From positions 160,001 to 224,000 of the forward strand of contig CAWEPK010000008.1 in the NCBI GenBank assembly GCA_963810935.1: a stretch of DNA of 64,000 nt, written 5' to 3'. Positions 43,501-49,500 of the stretch are shown here, one piece after another. The stretch's first letter is position 1. Every line of letters starts with the position of its first letter. Made by a program: the position numbers. The DNA comes from an uncultured delta proteobacterium. Lineage in GTDB: Bacteria; Desulfobacterota; Syntrophorhabdia; Syntrophorhabdales; WCHB1-27.

Positions 43501-46500
43501 GCAACAGTGTGCTCCACATAACGAGCCACCGCTTCGACGAGCATTCGTGCCTTGACCTTTTGGCAGCCTGCGATTCGGTTGTCGCGGTCCACGGCTATAC
43601 AGGCTATGACGAGGCGATACTCCTCGGCGGCCTTGACGAAGGCCTCAAGGCCCGTGTAGCAGCATCGCTACGCGCAACCGGCTTCGAGGCTGCGACTGAC
43701 GGCCATCAGTTTCCGGGAACAGAGCCGACCAATATTTGCAACCGCTGCCGCACCGGCAGGGGCGTGCAGATTGAGCTGTCGCGCCACATACGCGACAGCG
43801 AAGAAAGACGCCTGAAGCTGGTAAAGGCCGTGCGGGCTGCGCTGTCGAAAGCCCCTTCTTGATATTGCGGCCGCTTACAGGTATATTTTTTTTCAGGCGA
43901 TGGGGTTCGCCGTAACCGCCCCGCAAGAGGGGCTGATGACTCCTGATTATCCCACCTCTTGCGGGAGCGGACGGTGCGCCGGTATGCTTCCGCCGGAGGC
44001 CACCCGGAGGAGCATCATGGAAGAGAAAACCGCTCGACCTGACCCCGCCAGGGCCGCATCGCGCGCAATCCTCGACCGCGCCCGCGAAATAGGACTCCGC
44101 TTCAATATTGCCTCCCTCGCCCCCCAGTTGGACGCGTGCGGGAAGCTCTTCAGCCGGGACGAATATATAGACGTTGCGGTCCTGGGTCAGTTCAAAGCCG
44201 GCAAAAGCTCCTTCATCAACAGCCTCATCGGCCATGAGGTCCTGCCCGTCGGCGTAATCCCGGTAACCACGGTCATCACACGACTTTACTACGATCAAGA
44301 ACCGGGCGCGGTCGTGACACGCTTCGATGGCACCACGGTCCGGGCGCCGCTCGACGAGATAGCGGACTACATATCGGAAGGAAAGAACCCTGCGAACGAA
44401 AAGGACGTTGAGGTCGTCGATATCGGCCTACCCGCCCTCGGGCGCTATCCGGGGCTGCGGCTCGTCGATACCCCCGGCCTGGGGAGCGCCTTCAGGCATA
44501 ACACCGGGACGTCGCGCAGGTGGCTGCCGGAGGCGGGAGCGGCCATCGCGGCAGTCAGCGCGGAACGCCCCCTTTCCGAGAGCGATATAGACCTCGTCAG
44601 AGAGTCTGACGGGCCACAGCCCGAACGTCATCCTGCTCCTCACGAAGGTCGACCTTCTCTCGCCGGAACAGCAAGCGGAGGTCATTGCGTTCTTCAATAA
44701 GACGCTCCTGAGGGAGATCGGCCGCGAGCTTCCCGTCTACACGTATTCGACGGTGAGCCGCACGGACTTACTGAAAGGCCGCATCGATGCCATTTTGCGA
44801 GCGCTCTCAGACAATCGCCGGGAGGAGCAGAAAAGCATCCTGCTGCACAAAATTGCCTTGCTGGCCAGGACCTCCATCGGCTACCTCGACCTTGCCCTGC
44901 TGGCGTCACTGAAAGCGGACGGGGAACGCGAAGCTGCAAGGAAGCTGATCCTTACCGAAAAGCTCAATTACGAGCTCGTCAGGGCGGAGTTGTTCGCTGT
45001 GGCGCGCGAAAACGAGCGAGAGACGAGGGGCGTTATCGCGGCCCGGCTCGAATCCAGGAGGCCGGAGCTGACGCGCAGGCTCGTTGCCGCCCTGGCTGCT
45101 GAGATGCCCGCATGGAAGGGCGGCCTGTGGAAGCTCACCCGAAGGTATGAGGAATGGCTCGAAGAGACCCTGACGAGTGAGCTTGCGGCCCTGTCGCAAA
45201 AAGAGCATCGCCACTTCTTCGGGACGCTCGATAAGGCCCGCGCGTCCATCTTACGGTCCCTGGACCTATTCCGGAACCTCCTCGACAGGAACATCGAAGC
45301 CGTTTTGGGTGTGACGCTCACGCCTCCCATATGGGAGATCAGCGTCGCCGAGCCGGCCAATCCCGACATCGCCTTTACCAAGGTATTCGACTTTCACCTG
45401 GATGCCCTCTGGTTCGTCATCCCTACGCCCCTGTTCAGGCCTGTATTCGAGAGGCGCTTTCTGCGGAAGGTGCCGCAGATAGTGCAGATGCACCTGTCGC
45501 GCCTCGCCTATCAATGGGAAGTGCGGATCAACAAGACCATCGATGAGATGCGGGACCGCGGCCTGGAATACGTACGGGACCAGCTTTCCGACATAGACGC
45601 CCTGCTATCGCAATCGACGGGGCGAAGCGCGGAGTTGCGGGAAGCCATTGGCGATCTGCGGGACAACCTCCGGCAACTGGCGGTCTGAATCCATAAGGCC
45701 GCCCTTTCGGGACCGGCCGGGGCTTTACCCGAAGAAGTATTGATTTGTCACACAGTCTCCGTTAAGCTATTTGTCAGTTTGGGGATGGAGTCCCCTCGTA
45801 ACTGCCTTTAGGCCAGGCTGATGACTCCTACCATGAAGGCGCGTGCCTCGGTGGGGTCGTCTCCGGCTGTTCCCGACCCGTCGCACGACGGGTTTTTTGT
45901 TGCCTTCATCCTGGCCAATCTATCGTTGAGGAGGCTTCATCATGGAGCACATTTTTGTCATCGCCTCGGTCTGGCTGGGCCTTGCAGTTATCGCGGCAAT
46001 TATCGCTTATCACCTGCGCATTTCAATTGCCCTCGTCGAGATTTGCGTAGGCGTTGCGGCAGGCGGCCTGGCGGGGCTGTTCGCAAAGGCAGACGCGTTC
46101 GATATGAACGTCGAGTGGCTGCGGTTCCTCGCTTCCTCCGGGGCCATCCTGCTGACGTTCCTGGCAGGTGCGGAGCTGGAGCCGGACGCGCTGCGGTCGA
46201 AGGTAAAAGAGGTGTCCGTGGTCGGCCTCGTCGGTTTTCTTGCGCCGTTTTTCGGCTGCGCCGCGCTCGCCCACTACCTGCTCGGCTGGGAGTTACGACC
46301 GAGCCTCCTGTGCGGCGTCGCCCTTTCTACCACTTCCATGGCGGTCGTCTACGCGGTCATGCTGGAGACGGGCCTTAACAAGACGGAATTCGGCAAAGGC
46401 ATCCTGGGCGCCTGCTTTGTAAACGACCTTGGCACGGTCATCGCCCTCGGCCTGCTATTCGCGCCGTTTACCTACAGGACGCTCGTGTTTGTAGCCGTCA

Positions 46501-49500
46501 GCGCTGTCGTCCTGGCCTTCCTTCCTTCCGTAACGGGCCTGCTGACGCGCATTTATGCCTACCGCACGGCCGCCATACGGGCCAAATGGGTGCTCCTGGT
46601 CCTATTCGGTCTGGGGGCGCTTGCCCTCTGGGCAGGCAATGAAGGTGTCCTCCCGGCCTACATCGGGGGCATGGTGCTTGCGTCCAGGGCGGCAAAGGAC
46701 GACCTCTGGATACGCCGCATGAGGACGCTTACCATAGGTTTTCTGACGCCCTTCTACTTCCTCCGGGCGGGTATGCTCGTCTCCATCGGGGCCCTCGTTT
46801 CCGCGCCCCTCGTCTTCCTCGCACTGCTGGCTGCCAAAGTCTTCTCCAAAATCTTCGGCCTTTACCCTGTGGTCCGGCCGTTCAGACAGGACCACAACGA
46901 GCGCTGGTATTACACCCTTCTCATGTCTACGGGGCTGACGTTCGGGACGATCTCGGCGCTCTTCGGCCTCTCCCACGGGATCGTGACGCGGGGACAATAC
47001 TCTTTTCTCGTTGCAACGGTCATCGCGAGCGCCGTAGTGCCGACCCTTATTGCCACGATCTTTTTCCTGCCGACGCACCTTCTCGATACCGGGCGGGAAA
47101 AGCCGCAGCCGAACGGCGAAGGGCTGGCGGACGAAGGATAAATTCCAGGGCTTCTTTTCCACTGCCGAAGGTTGTTAATCGACTATCCAGTTGGGCCTGG
47201 TCCGGGCATAGTCGGCCACGGCCTGCCTGGTCCATTCTTCGAGGCCCGGCGACATGTAGAAACTGGGTACGAGAAGGTCGTTGCAGGCAAGGACGACCCT
47301 TTCCCTTACTGCCTGGTCCGCCAGTTGCGTGCCCGGATAAATGCGGACGCCAATTGTAATCTTCAACGCTTCTAATTCGAGGGAATCGGCGAAGGCAAGG
47401 CTTTCCTTCACAGAATCGCGCGTCTCTCCGGGACCCCCGAGGAGGACAAACCCCATGCACTTGATGCCGGATTTGCGCAAGGCCTCACGCGTCCGGGCAA
47501 CGTCGCGCAGATCGAACCGCTTGTTCATGCTTTTCAGCATCTTCTGGCACCCGCTCTCGAACCCGACGGCCGCGTCGCTGCACCCCGCCTGCGCCATGAG
47601 ACCGGCCAGCTCCTCGTCCAGCCGCCAGGGATAGACAATAGCCGTCCATGAAACGCCAAGGGAAGCGGCGATCAGCTCGCTGCATAGGAGGCGCGCATAC
47701 GAGACAGGCAGGTTGAATGTGTTGTCCACGAAATAGAACCTGCGGCCGCCTGCGGCCGCCCACCCGGCGATCCATTCCACGACCTTAGCAGGCGACCTTT
47801 TGCGTACTGCCCGCCCCTCGATGGAGGCGGTCGAGCAGTATGAGCAGCCAAGGGGGCAGCCGCGCCGCGTCTGCACCGGTATTGCAGTCTCGCCGGCCCC
47901 GGTCAACGGCAGCAGGCCCGGACCAGGCAAAGGCAGCGTGTCAAGGTCGCGAACGAAAACTCGCGGGGCCTGAAGCCCCCTCTTTTTTAGATAGAGGCCG
48001 GGCGTGCCTTCGAGCGGTTGCCCGTGTTCTATTCTTTCGAGGAGCAGCCGGAGTGCCTCCTCCCCCTCGCCGCAGATGCCCATGTCCGCGCGCGAGCGTT
48101 CCAGCGCGCCTTCCGGAAAAATGCTGTAGCCCGCGCCCCCCAATATCACGGGGGCGGACGTAAGAGATTTCACACAGTCGATGACTGCATTGGCCTCTTC
48201 CATGAAGTAGCGGGGAGAGGACATGTTTTGATCGTCGATGTTGCGCAGCGATATACCGACCGCACCCGGGGACAATTCTTTCACGGCTGCGCCAATGGCG
48301 GCCTGTACGTCCTGCACGCCCAGGAGGTCGAGGGTCTGCACCTCATGCCCCGCCGCGTCAAGCGCCGCTGCCACGCAACCGAGACCGAGCGGCAGGGCCC
48401 GCATGTTAATCTCGGTCCGGTTCGCCGATATCAGGAGCACCCTCATTTCACCCGCCGGTCCTCCTTCACCCCTTTGTGCGCCTTCCAGTGCTCGTACTCG
48501 TAAGGCCACTCTTCCTTGCGCCACGTCACCAGCGACCTCATGCGCTCTTTGAACTTGAGGGTAAGCCAGGCGTAATCCGGAGAGCCTTCTTGCGCTTCCC
48601 AGGCCGCTACGAGCTTACCTCCCAGCTCAAGCGCCTTCTCGCGCGTCCCGGCAGGGAAGTTGTGTCCTTCTATTTGTCCCATGGTCGCCCAGACGGAGCC
48701 TACCGGGACAGCCCCGCACACCGCAAGGAACTGGTTGATGTACTCGGCGATGGGCGCCTCGTCCCCTCCCCCTGATGTCACGACGGCAGCGCCGTATTTC
48801 CCCTCGAACCCCTGAAGGTGGACCGCACCGCAGCAGCGGTCGATGAAGGTTTTCAACTGCGCGCTCACGTGGGATATATAATTCGGCGTCGCGAGGATTA
48901 TACCATCCGCCTCATCGACTGCCTTCTTTATCGCGCCGAACGAATCCTTCTGGGGGCACGAGCCCACTTTGTGGCAGGTATCGCATGCCTTGCACGGCTT
49001 CACCTCCTGCCCCTTTATGGCAAAGACCTCGATAGACGCCCCTGCCTCCTCCGACCCCTGCAGGACGAGTTTCATCAGGCTGCCCGTCGCGCCCTTCATA
49101 CCCCTGGGGCTGCCCACTATCGCAGCTATCTTCATGCGGTCCTCCTTTCGACGCTCTATATGTTTCGGGTCGCAAGCAGCCAGGCGTTCCCTCGGTATAC
49201 AAGGTATTTCCGGCCGCAATGATATTATAACACCCGCGCCGGCACGGCGCCTAACGGAACCTTCGTCGGCAGGCAGGCCCGAAGAGACCCCTGGCCGACC
49301 GGCCGGAGCCAATCGGAGCCCTTTTTTCAAGGGCCTGTTTTCATAGTAAAAACAGTTCGTTCGAAAAATATAAATTTCTTCTTGACAGCCATTCCGAAAA
49401 GTAATATTGTATACAAAGCGTATGTAACGCAATTCACAACGCGCCGCTGATAGGTGAAGGGCCGTTAAGACAGGCCGCATACGCAAGCGGGTCCAAGTCC

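Follow-up and report, generated by a model that had tools for sequence, protein, structure and literature searches.

The window, that is the whole stretch of 64,000 nucleotides analysed here from an uncultured delta proteobacterium, holds two fluoride riboswitches, one upstream of a dynamin-like GTPase (DLP) and the other upstream of a transporter of the Na+/H+-exchanger family (Table 1). This arrangement, including a protein of about 560 residues behind the first switch, had been described in the genome-wide survey's note, and a cmscan of the entire window against Rfam returned both aptamers at the same bit scores, as the sole Rfam matches above the gathering score (34 bits for RF01734). Throughout the 4.06-Mb genome these two are likewise the only RF01734 matches above the cut-off, a third match remaining sub-threshold at 23.9 bits. 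The first aptamer can be aligned with 39 other Rfam-positive copies, and 23 columns of that alignment are invariant.

Table 1. Features of the two riboswitch units, with positions counted from the first nucleotide of the window.
Feature	Position	Strand	Basis
Promoter-like site TTGATA-17-TATATT, abutting riboswitch 1 on its 5' side	43859-43887	+	Consensus match alone, 10/12 (consensus scan)
Fluoride riboswitch aptamer 1 (RF01734)	43887-43952	+	58.4 bits, E 1.3e-13, positions 1-64/64
Predicted expression platform, switch 1	43953-44016	+	MFE fold z -4.4; constrained folds
DLP gene, ~557 aa	44017-45688	+	Pfam Dynamin_N 1e-23, translations, intact relatives
Fluoride riboswitch aptamer 2 (RF01734)	45772-45837	+	50.0 bits, E 6.9e-11, positions 1-64/64
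Intrinsic-terminator-like hairpin GACCCGTCGCACGACGGGTT, then T run; predicted platform of switch 2	45875-45900	+	Terminator scan
Na_H_Exchanger-family (CPA2-like) transporter, 399 aa	45942-47141	+	PF00999 1e-31, residues 14-372

Both aptamers are coupled to predicted expression platforms. The platform of switch 1, which lacks a U-tract, contains one segment that could pair with the P2 strand of the aptamer, and an anti-Shine-Dalgarno segment predicted to pair with the GGAGGAG at 44006-44012 and with the bases leading to the AUG. Both helices are kept in a consensus fold of nine related leaders, with two-sided changes at three pairs. For switch 2 the terminator hairpin appears in both predicted folds; since even the constrained one retains it, the folds resolve no anti-terminator. 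Judged from these models, both riboswitches are very probably ON switches.

The DLP gene begins at the ATG that follows this GGAGGAG, and the Dynamin_N match covers the N-terminal part of its product, which shares 62-63% identity with intact relatives of 561 aa. In the window the coding sequence is split, frame one running from 44017 to ~44604 and frame two from ~44606 to 45688, with one extra base near 44605/44606 that leaves ORFs of 266 aa and 311 aa. Taken at face value this frameshift would make the DLP a dead pseudogene here, with the transporter unit working alone, a reading that we regard as very improbable. Two short-read contigs bridge the site, one from run X2 with no other differences and one from run X3, a near strain with nine, and in each a base is absent at 44605 or 44606, so that a single frame is restored. 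The depth of this check is below 5, and its three DNA runs come from one study, one of them perhaps being the source sample of the window. The translations contain no further stop, and the GTPase motifs are all intact in the window protein (G1 GQFKAGKSS, PVTTV, DTPG and TKVD), with the G1, switch-I Thr, DTPG and K-x-D positions invariant across 45 DLP family members. The frameshift is thus probably an assembly error, as had been suspected.

By its fold the protein is a bacterial dynamin of the type of IniA, BDLP and the Campylobacter jejuni DLPs, the same nearest solved structures (6j72, 2j68 and 5owv) as were named before. In an AlphaFold model made from an intact relative (pLDDT 88, pTM 0.79), long bundles of helices come after a G domain; the helices, at residues 11-46 and 250-556, thus stem from both termini and build the neck and trunk. 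The best Foldseek matches are IniA 6j72, BDLP 2j69/2j68 and Cj-DLP 5owv, aligned over the full length (~590-690 columns) despite low TM-scores of 0.31-0.41. A conserved hydrophobic stretch with the consensus FD...DLLWFLIPM..FR, which may insert into the membrane as a paddle would, lies in or beside the loop where the helical domain has its far tip, a region with pLDDT of only 60-78. Among solved structures the best match by sequence is C. jejuni DLP1/DLP2 (5owv, 5oxf), the DLP profile finding 5owv_C at 8.1e-28 over query residues 31-340; both have the G domain and the bundles of helices, but the C. jejuni proteins, of 614 and 732 aa, function as a pair from two genes and here there is one gene of ~557 aa. 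The best structural match is IniA of Mycobacterium (6j72/6j73; Foldseek E 2.1e-17 over 593 columns, profile E 7e-23), also a single-chain DLP, of ~600 aa. IniA is induced by chemical stress and acts at the plasma membrane. It is nevertheless a mere 15-17% identical to the DLP, its inducers are cell-wall drugs and not fluoride, and it is encoded in the iniBAC operon with protein regulators and, to our knowledge, no riboswitch. Nostoc punctiforme BDLP (2j68, 2j69, 2w6d), which binds and tubulates membranes, shares the G domain, the neck and trunk helices and, apparently, the hydrophobic tip, but is larger at 695 aa with a bigger paddle, and we know of no tie between it and fluoride or a riboswitch.

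The pairing of riboswitch and DLP recurs across genomes. Within the order Syntrophorhabdales, sampled with 96 genomes, counting was restricted to places that hold the N-terminus of the homologue (n=42); RF01734 over the cut-off stands directly upstream on the same strand in 41 of them, and the remaining DLP (G083) lies 5 nt short of a contig end. Where the gap was worked out in the order, ~45-70 nt separate the riboswitch from the estimated DLP start. The earlier count of five out of five loci in the family of the window was reproduced, and the claim of a clade that carries the riboswitch throughout the order not only stands but extends to metagenomes and to other families. DLP is the commonest riboswitch-controlled gene of the order: of 72 riboswitches over the cut-off, 41 precede a DLP, 17 a Na_H_Exchanger gene, two a MutS_V gene, two a hydrogenase/complex-I-like gene and one a DLP remnant, with nine unassigned or at contig ends. 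In many of these genomes the sole riboswitch found is the one before the DLP.

Eighty metagenome loci were scanned with our own covariance model R1. Where identity to the DLP is at least 50%, the riboswitch lies directly upstream in 49 of 52; among the exceptions, L092 has the riboswitch ahead of one intervening gene, and L086 and L101 leave no space for one. A tree of 95 rows contains a clade (72 rows, SH-aLRT 99) that unites L092 with 71 rows that have a direct riboswitch. The survey's description of the DLP as dedicated to the fluoride regulon is too strong for the wider family of ~550-aa proteins, in which 16 of the 28 metagenome loci at 35-43% identity have no riboswitch. Outside the order, in a phylum sample of 401 genomes, 17 of 23 full-length close homologues have a direct riboswitch, in five more it stands on the same strand but 0.7-2.9 kb further upstream, and one has no upstream DNA. 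A more distant DLP group in the same sample has a direct riboswitch at 30 of 38 places.

The pairing holds in far more than 100 loci from divergent lineages, and the DLP is almost certainly a member of the fluoride regulon. The opposite notion, that the pairing is incidental and the riboswitch serves a downstream antiporter or enolase with the DLP merely in between, draws on the several loci in which a Na_H_Exchanger, enolase or formate/nitrite transporter gene lies downstream of the DLP. Besides the breadth of the pairing, it has to contend with a transporter that possesses its own second riboswitch, here and in L104, L100 and L162, and with downstream genes that vary widely between loci or sit on the opposite strand; we give it hardly any credence.

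The absence of CrcB reported for this genome held up: in six-frame translation of the genome (93.5% complete) CRCB (PF02537) reached 13.6 bits at best, below the cut-off, with a search that detected it in 11 of 14 control genomes. CrcB was likewise not found in 94 of the 96 genomes of the order, and the earlier figures for the family of the window were obtained again: among its 22 genomes, one has CRCB and 15 have riboswitches. Signatures of the other fluoride exporter, CLC-F, are given in a passage of the review PMC11139923 as GREGT/V, GNNLI/GMGLI and GEVTP. The only CLC of the genome, an ORF of 603 aa within an open frame of 624 aa, shows GKEGP and GVFAP; CBS-domain models match its C-terminal part, residues 459-594. 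G[RK]EGP is common to it and to 27 CLC frames that come from 30 genomes of the order with a DLP, and none of these sequences carries the CLC-F signatures listed in that passage. By its motifs, the genome's CLC is of a type other than the fluoride type.

These observations invite the idea that the DLP is a disposal device replacing an exporter, removing fluoride without a channel, by vesicle pinching or by helping to sequester fluoride-metal precipitates. IniA/IniC and LeoA have a role in vesicle release, which lends the idea some support, as does the failure to find either CrcB or a CLC-F signature in this genome or in 30 genomes of the order with a DLP, and as do the many genomes of the order whose sole riboswitch found precedes the DLP. 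In the phylum sample, moreover, CRCB occurs in 11 of 66 DLP-bearing genomes versus 155 of 335 others, and sequestration is named as a possible fluoride strategy in the review (PMC11139923, in the passage concerned). The CrcB contrast, however, tracks whole families whose members are kin and not independent, so it may reflect shared descent and not substitution. Nor is the DLP strictly a substitute for CrcB: in one family of the phylum, DLP, crcB and DUF190 share a strand-run behind a riboswitch. Four of the five loci with a remote riboswitch have crcB and DUF190 immediately upstream of the DLP, both genes lying between riboswitch and DLP in L177-L179, and DUF190 lying upstream of the riboswitch in L180 with crcB beyond it. 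In G244, two riboswitches stand back to back, one for the DLP and one for crcB. From this family and G244 it follows that the DLP also functions side by side with an exporter. Clearing a small ion in bulk by means of vesicles is quantitatively difficult, and comparison of the neighbourhoods revealed no conserved cargo or mineralisation genes next to the DLP. We consider disposal unlikely.

Alternatively, the DLP might itself be sensitive to fluoride, being overproduced against inhibition, or a fluoride-metal-GDP complex might lock its G-domain dimer, fluoride then having a direct effect on the protein besides that on the mRNA. Compensation for inhibition has been suggested for pyrophosphatase and for enolase. 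Enolase is a known target of fluoride, and its gene comes after the DLP within one strand-run at two loci, L016 and L021 (gap 29 nt in the latter). Fluoride complexes that trap dynamin-type G-domain dimers are established biochemistry, and the nucleotide-binding motifs of the DLP are fully conserved. Yet no second real Dynamin_N gene was found in the genome, so there is no housekeeping copy in need of back-up, and many relatives lack the gene (five of the family's 22 genomes carry it, and none of the three others of the genus), so its activity is not an essential one that would call for compensation. The one clean difference that separates riboswitch-linked clades from the others, Q58 versus R58 in the P-loop, fails to track the riboswitch: seven riboswitch-linked loci in the tabulated set have R58, as do L171 and L175 in the phylum set. 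We consider this alternative quite unlikely.

The second unit of the locus is the more familiar. The transporter has no C-terminal regulatory domain, and it scores 104.8 bits against the nearest NCBIfam model, TIGR00932 (CPA2), below the cut-off of 238.3; homologues stand behind a fluoride riboswitch at 16 further places in the order. Classical fluoride-riboswitch units comprise crcB/Fluc, eriC-F/CLC-F, Na+/H+ antiporter, enolase, pyrophosphatase, formate hydrogen lyase and mutS-like genes. The locus shares their aptamer class and logic, its antiporter unit fits a known class, the second commonest of riboswitch-linked genes according to a passage of PMC11139923, and the order also has the MutS_V and hydrogenase-type targets named in passages of Weinberg 2010 (PMC2864571). 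What sets this lineage apart is that the exporters which normally head the regulon are missing. A dynamin-like GTPase is not named as a target in the matching passages of PMC11139923, and neither 'dynamin' nor 'GTPase' occurs in the text or eight supplementary files of Weinberg 2010. The assertion that the pairing is unreported holds only for the searchable literature, in which no paper on it was found; Baker et al. 2012, supplement included, lies outside that scope.

Known bacterial DLPs act in repair, fission, vesicle release and cytokinesis, and with several roles on record homology leaves the function of this one unfixed. The reading that we prefer, and hold to be somewhat more probable than its contraries, is a fluoride regulon of two units, DLP and CPA2-like antiporter, each with its own riboswitch, the DLP acting on the membrane. 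The patchy distribution of the gene in the family and the switchless loci among more distant DLPs count against it. Cytoplasmic fluoride would rise, probably through the entry of HF when the pH outside is low, and be bound by the aptamers. At switch 1 this would free the ribosome-binding site of the DLP mRNA and turn translation on, and at switch 2 it would prevent formation of the intrinsic terminator and turn transcription on. The DLP, as a GTP-driven and putatively membrane-binding mechanoenzyme of the BDLP/IniA type, would maintain or reshape the cytoplasmic membrane by sealing, fusion or fission under fluoride-induced stress on envelope and energy supply, and the antiporter would offset the accompanying disturbance of pH and ions. 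Passages of PMC11139923 describe fluoride as raising the expression of membrane-integrity genes, promoting lysis and potentiating cell-wall drugs. The chances are about even that maintenance or remodelling of the membrane under fluoride, in a protective role, is what the DLP does. The association of a dynamin-like GTPase with the fluoride riboswitch suggests that membrane remodelling is a part of microbial fluoride coping that has so far gone undescribed.

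Exactly two Rfam matches exceed the gathering score within the 64-kb window, both of them full-length fluoride riboswitches (RF01734), and these are also the only copies above the cut-off in the 4.06-Mb assembly. The first (switch 1) precedes a dynamin-like GTPase of about 557 residues (DLP), and the second (switch 2) precedes a protein of the Na_H_Exchanger family, for which the closest NCBIfam model is CPA2, with a score under the cut-off of that model. The N-terminal part of the DLP open reading frame (ORF) matches Dynamin_N in Pfam at 1e-23; no Pfam family matched its C-terminal part, and no NCBIfam model matched the DLP at or above its own cut-off. 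The neighbours of the locus appear unrelated to the riboswitch units. A weak third RF01734-like match, below the cut-off at 23.9 bits, lies on the same contig outside the window (G000:C8:566519-566593).

Features of the fluoride riboswitch locus and its neighbours, in window coordinates
Feature	Position	Remarks
516-aa protein, MFS-like N part fused to spermine/spermidine-synthase domain	41713-43263	locus neighbour
Poly-gamma-glutamate hydrolase family protein	43290-43862	3e-56; locus neighbour
Promoter-like TTGATA-17-TATATT	end at 43887	
Fluoride riboswitch, switch 1	43887-43952	RF01734, 58.4 bits against a cut-off of 34
DLP ORF	ATG 44017 to 45688	frame change near 44605; preceded by GGAGGAG at 44006-44012
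Fluoride riboswitch, switch 2	45772-45837	RF01734, 50.0 bits (cut-off 34)
Terminator-like hairpin and T run	45875-45900	behind switch 2
Na_H_Exchanger protein, 399 aa	45942-47141	behind switch 2; Pfam 1e-31
B12-binding radical SAM protein	47175-48524	(-), strand opposite to locus

An intact relative of 561 residues, 62-63% identical to the two parts of the window protein, was modelled on an alignment of 45 sequences, giving a predicted structure with pLDDT 88 and pTM 0.79. The model comprises N-terminal helices, a G domain (approximately residues 51-245) and long helical bundles; the loop at 431-460, next to a conserved hydrophobic stretch, is predicted with less confidence. Foldseek searches of the PDB ranked IniA (6j72, 2.1e-17), BDLP (2j69, 2j68) and the DLPs of C. 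jejuni (5owv, 5oxf) at the top, with Mx, Drp1, SynDLP and mitofusins next; the TM-scores are low (0.31-0.41), which we put down to helical domains that are probably posed differently. Sequence profiles matched 5owv_C (8e-28), 6j72 (7e-23) and 2j68 (1e-20), and the P-loop, switch-I Thr, DTPG and K-x-D motifs, invariant across the 45 relatives, are all found in the window protein. Together, the Foldseek ranking, the profile matches and the invariant GTPase motifs identify this protein as a bacterial dynamin-like protein, and it would be expected to bind membranes. No second true Dynamin_N gene was found in the genome, and the proposal that the DLP serves as a reserve for a housekeeping DLP under inhibition was rejected for this genome on that ground.

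The frame change within the gene was checked against contigs from four public sequencing runs, two of which span the site, while that of run X1 does not. The 685-nt contig of X2 lacks one base at 44605 and is otherwise identical to the window, and that of X3, from a near strain with nine differences, lacks one base at 44606. With one base removed the DLP reads ...DLVRE-L-TGHSPNVILLLTKVDLL..., colinear with intact relatives of 552-630 residues. The extra base near 44605 is thus a probable rather than a proven assembly error, given that depth stays under 5, that a single study produced all three DNA runs and that one of these is possibly the window's source sample. The RNA run X6 provided a single identical contig of 212 nt (45453-45664), which is no proof of transcription.

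The association of the riboswitch with this protein recurs far beyond the window. Within the family WCHB1-27 the switch is present at 5/5 homologue loci, in four other genomes, a figure that, like all pairing figures here, is a count and not a statistic, because kin genomes lack independence and several loci from the metagenomes nearly duplicate each other. Across the 96 genomes of the order, 41 have a DLP homologue and 53 an above-cut-off riboswitch, with 72 riboswitches altogether. By coordinates, a same-strand riboswitch lies directly upstream at 41 of the 42 places with a DLP N-terminus; at the other (G083) the gene reaches the end of its contig. Across the order no gene type follows a riboswitch more often than the DLP, as the other 31 riboswitches precede Na_H_Exchanger genes (17, including that of the window), MutS_V genes (2), hydrogenase- or complex-I-like genes (2) and a DLP remnant (1, in G003), or are unresolved or at contig ends (9). 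At the remnant locus L047 (G003:C3:842000-846050) and at L014, a fragment of approximately 60 residues immediately behind the riboswitch is 83-86% identical to DLP residues 91-150 with one internal TGA, and is followed by a second riboswitch and then a Na_H_Exchanger gene; this is a decayed version of the window arrangement. At roughly nine loci of the order (L025, L027, L033, L041, L043 and about four more) two same-strand genes lie about 100 nt downstream of the DLP, namely an ORF of 230 aa that matches NifU_N weakly and a GGGtGRT (PF14057) gene.

Metagenomic loci, 80 in number, were scanned with R1, an uncalibrated covariance model built from 40 Rfam-positive riboswitch copies. At 50% identity or more to the DLP, a riboswitch is direct at 49 of 52 loci; at L092 a 267-aa Prenyltrans-like gene stands between riboswitch and DLP, at L086 this gene, again upstream of the DLP, begins at nt 72 of the locus sequence and leaves no space for a riboswitch, and L101 has no DNA upstream of the DLP. 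This protein of 263-270 aa, which matches the prenyltransferase/squalene-cyclase alpha-alpha-toroid (1e-17; L092 264-1067, L093 497-1288, L086 72-884), is placed between the fluoride riboswitch and the DLP, with a riboswitch of its own in L093, and may be a further part of the regulon that has to do with membranes or lipids. Among 28 loci at 35-43% identity the riboswitch is direct at nine, four of them under 34 bits on the uncalibrated R1; two have a riboswitch ahead of an intervening gene, upstream DNA is absent at one, and the remaining 16 show no riboswitch.

A quick IQ-TREE analysis (LG+G4, with SH-aLRT as the only support measure) included 95 of 110 proteins, leaving out 11 shorter than 500 residues and four exact duplicates. 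It grouped 71 direct-riboswitch rows and L092 into a clade of 72 (support 99), with a sister group of four rows, three of them direct, and a separate clade of 19 rows, of which 14 are without riboswitch. The P-loop residue Q58 of the riboswitch clade, R58 in the other, was considered as a possible fluoride adaptation but proved to be a clade marker only, since seven riboswitch-linked tabulated loci carry R, as do two from the phylum set, L171 and L175.

In the phylum sample of 401 genomes, 66 hold a match with an E-value no higher than 1e-60, and outside the order the riboswitch is direct at 17 of 23 full-length close homologues. Four of the others, all from one family (L177-L180), have same-strand crcB (PF02537, ~1e-29 to 1e-31) and DUF190 (~1e-37 to 1e-39) genes immediately upstream of the DLP: L178 and L179 run riboswitch, crcB, DUF190, DLP; in L177 the riboswitch lies ~2.5 kb upstream with crcB, DUF190 and an ORF likened to universal stress protein by its first residues alone in between; and in L180 it sits ~0.7 kb ahead of the DLP and is itself preceded by DUF190 and, farther out, crcB. 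At L168 the riboswitch is ~2.9 kb upstream, with an AAA_16 gene and an ORF of 142 aa behind it, and at L167 upstream DNA is absent. AAA_16/STAND-like ATPase genes of 243-248 aa occur on the same strand before the DLP in both L141 (423-1169) and L168 (3634-4365), with the riboswitch upstream of them. A more distant DLP group, with frames of ~430-670 aa at 38 places in 37 genomes, has an Rfam riboswitch within ~300 nt upstream at 30 places, 0.5-4 kb upstream at three and none at five.

The two switches of the window differ in design. Switch 1 has no U-tract, and its free leader fold (z -4.4) holds two helices, one pairing a downstream segment with the aptamer P2 strand and the other pairing an anti-SD segment with the stretch that runs from the SD up to the AUG. 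When the aptamer bases are blocked in the fold, the released segment switches to the anti-SD partner, and the consensus fold of nine related leaders keeps both helices, with three pairs changed on both sides. From these folds and the recurrence of the helices in nine leaders, we infer that switch 1 would exert translational ON control. Switch 2 has a classical terminator, through which it would presumably act; a simple constrained fold revealed no anti-terminator.

No CRCB (Fluc/CrcB) gene was found in the window genome, which is 93.5% complete, and CRCB occurs in 2 of the 96 genomes of the order and 166 of the 401 in the phylum sample. In that sample it is found in 11 of 66 DLP-bearing genomes against 155 of 335 others, a contrast that tracks whole families. 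The sole CLC of the window genome has an ORF of 603 aa within an open frame of 624 aa; it carries the motif GKEGP and, in its C-terminal part (residues 459-594), matches CBS-domain models. CLC genes are present in 22 of 30 DLP-bearing genomes of the order, and each of the 27 frames that cover the motif region has G[RK]EGP; GREGT/V, GNNLI/GMGLI and GEVTP, given as CLC-F signatures in the available parts of a 2024 review (PMC11139923), are absent from them. As the same parts of that review place an exporter in >85% of a reference genome set, with the exceptions mostly reduced-genome intracellular symbionts, a free-living order without exporters yet retaining the fluoride sensor is unusual.

Membership of the DLP in the fluoride response rests firmly on the constant riboswitch pairing, the crcB-DUF190 linkage in one family and three further arrangements: back-to-back riboswitches in G244 (C12, 48029-48280), one for the DLP and the other for a CRCB gene at 48548-48892; enolase directly downstream of the DLP at two loci; and the recurrent order riboswitch-DLP-riboswitch-antiporter in the window, L104/L105, L100 and L162. 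Opposite-strand riboswitch pairs within ~100-260 nt also occur in G302:C8, G213:C13, G385:C49, G358:C7, G455:C21 and G474:C31. Just downstream of a DLP in L102 (3515-4638), a riboswitch precedes a Form_Nir_trans formate/nitrite transporter (3e-78), of an anion channel family that is here controlled by fluoride. Genes of the MutS-like class, already known to be linked to fluoride riboswitches, stand together with a dynamin of another kind in L060 (G007:C40:1500-7900, minus strand): a riboswitch of 49.7 bits leads a same-strand run of ORFs of 280 aa (no Pfam match), 286 aa (MutS_V), 508 aa (MutS_V) and 852 aa (Dynamin_N), the last a distinct, larger DLP paralogue with a G domain 34% identical.

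IniA and DynA serve membrane maintenance during chemical or pore stress. By analogy with them, and with the effects of fluoride on membrane-integrity genes, lysis and cell-wall drug sensitivity described in the available parts of PMC11139923, membrane maintenance or remodelling would be the most likely role of the DLP, a view that we hold with about even confidence. Competing readings are that the DLP disposes of fluoride through vesicles, or that fluoride traps its GTPase directly. A stronger version of the membrane role, which we consider rather unlikely, makes the riboswitch-induced DLP the primary, export-independent defence of free-living anaerobes from which both known exporters were lost, through membrane sealing, fusion or vesicle shedding, in which fluoride-metal-GDP complexes locking the G-domain dimer might also tune the DLP at the protein level.

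No paper pairing a fluoride riboswitch with a dynamin was found in the searchable literature, outside which lie Baker 2012 with its supplement and McIlwain 2021. The available parts of PMC9971707 mention GTPases unconnected to the riboswitch, and those of PMC11139923 name no dynamin-like GTPase under a fluoride riboswitch; term searches found no such gene in Weinberg 2010 (text and eight supplementary files) or in the text of McCown 2017. Literature on bacterial dynamin-like proteins and fluoride concerned, by titles and abstract openings, eukaryotic or structural dynamin work, and that on Syntrophorhabdus and fluoride comprised unrelated papers only.

To the elements of the fluoride response described to date, namely export, homeostasis of pH and ions, and the replacement of enzymes that fluoride inhibits, the pairing would add a membrane-remodelling arm. 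To our knowledge, a clear physiological role or known inducing signal is still missing for most bacterial DLPs, and fluoride, a simple, specific and titratable inducer acting via a well-understood RNA switch, provides an experimental handle on a large DLP clade. The analysis further singles out an entire order of anaerobes, free-living and syntrophic, that have kept fluoride riboswitches and lack both Fluc and CLC-F. As the lack of exporters is, according to the 2024 review, otherwise mostly a trait of reduced-genome intracellular symbionts, how this order survives fluoride becomes a concrete, testable question, and one relevant to anaerobic organofluorine degradation.
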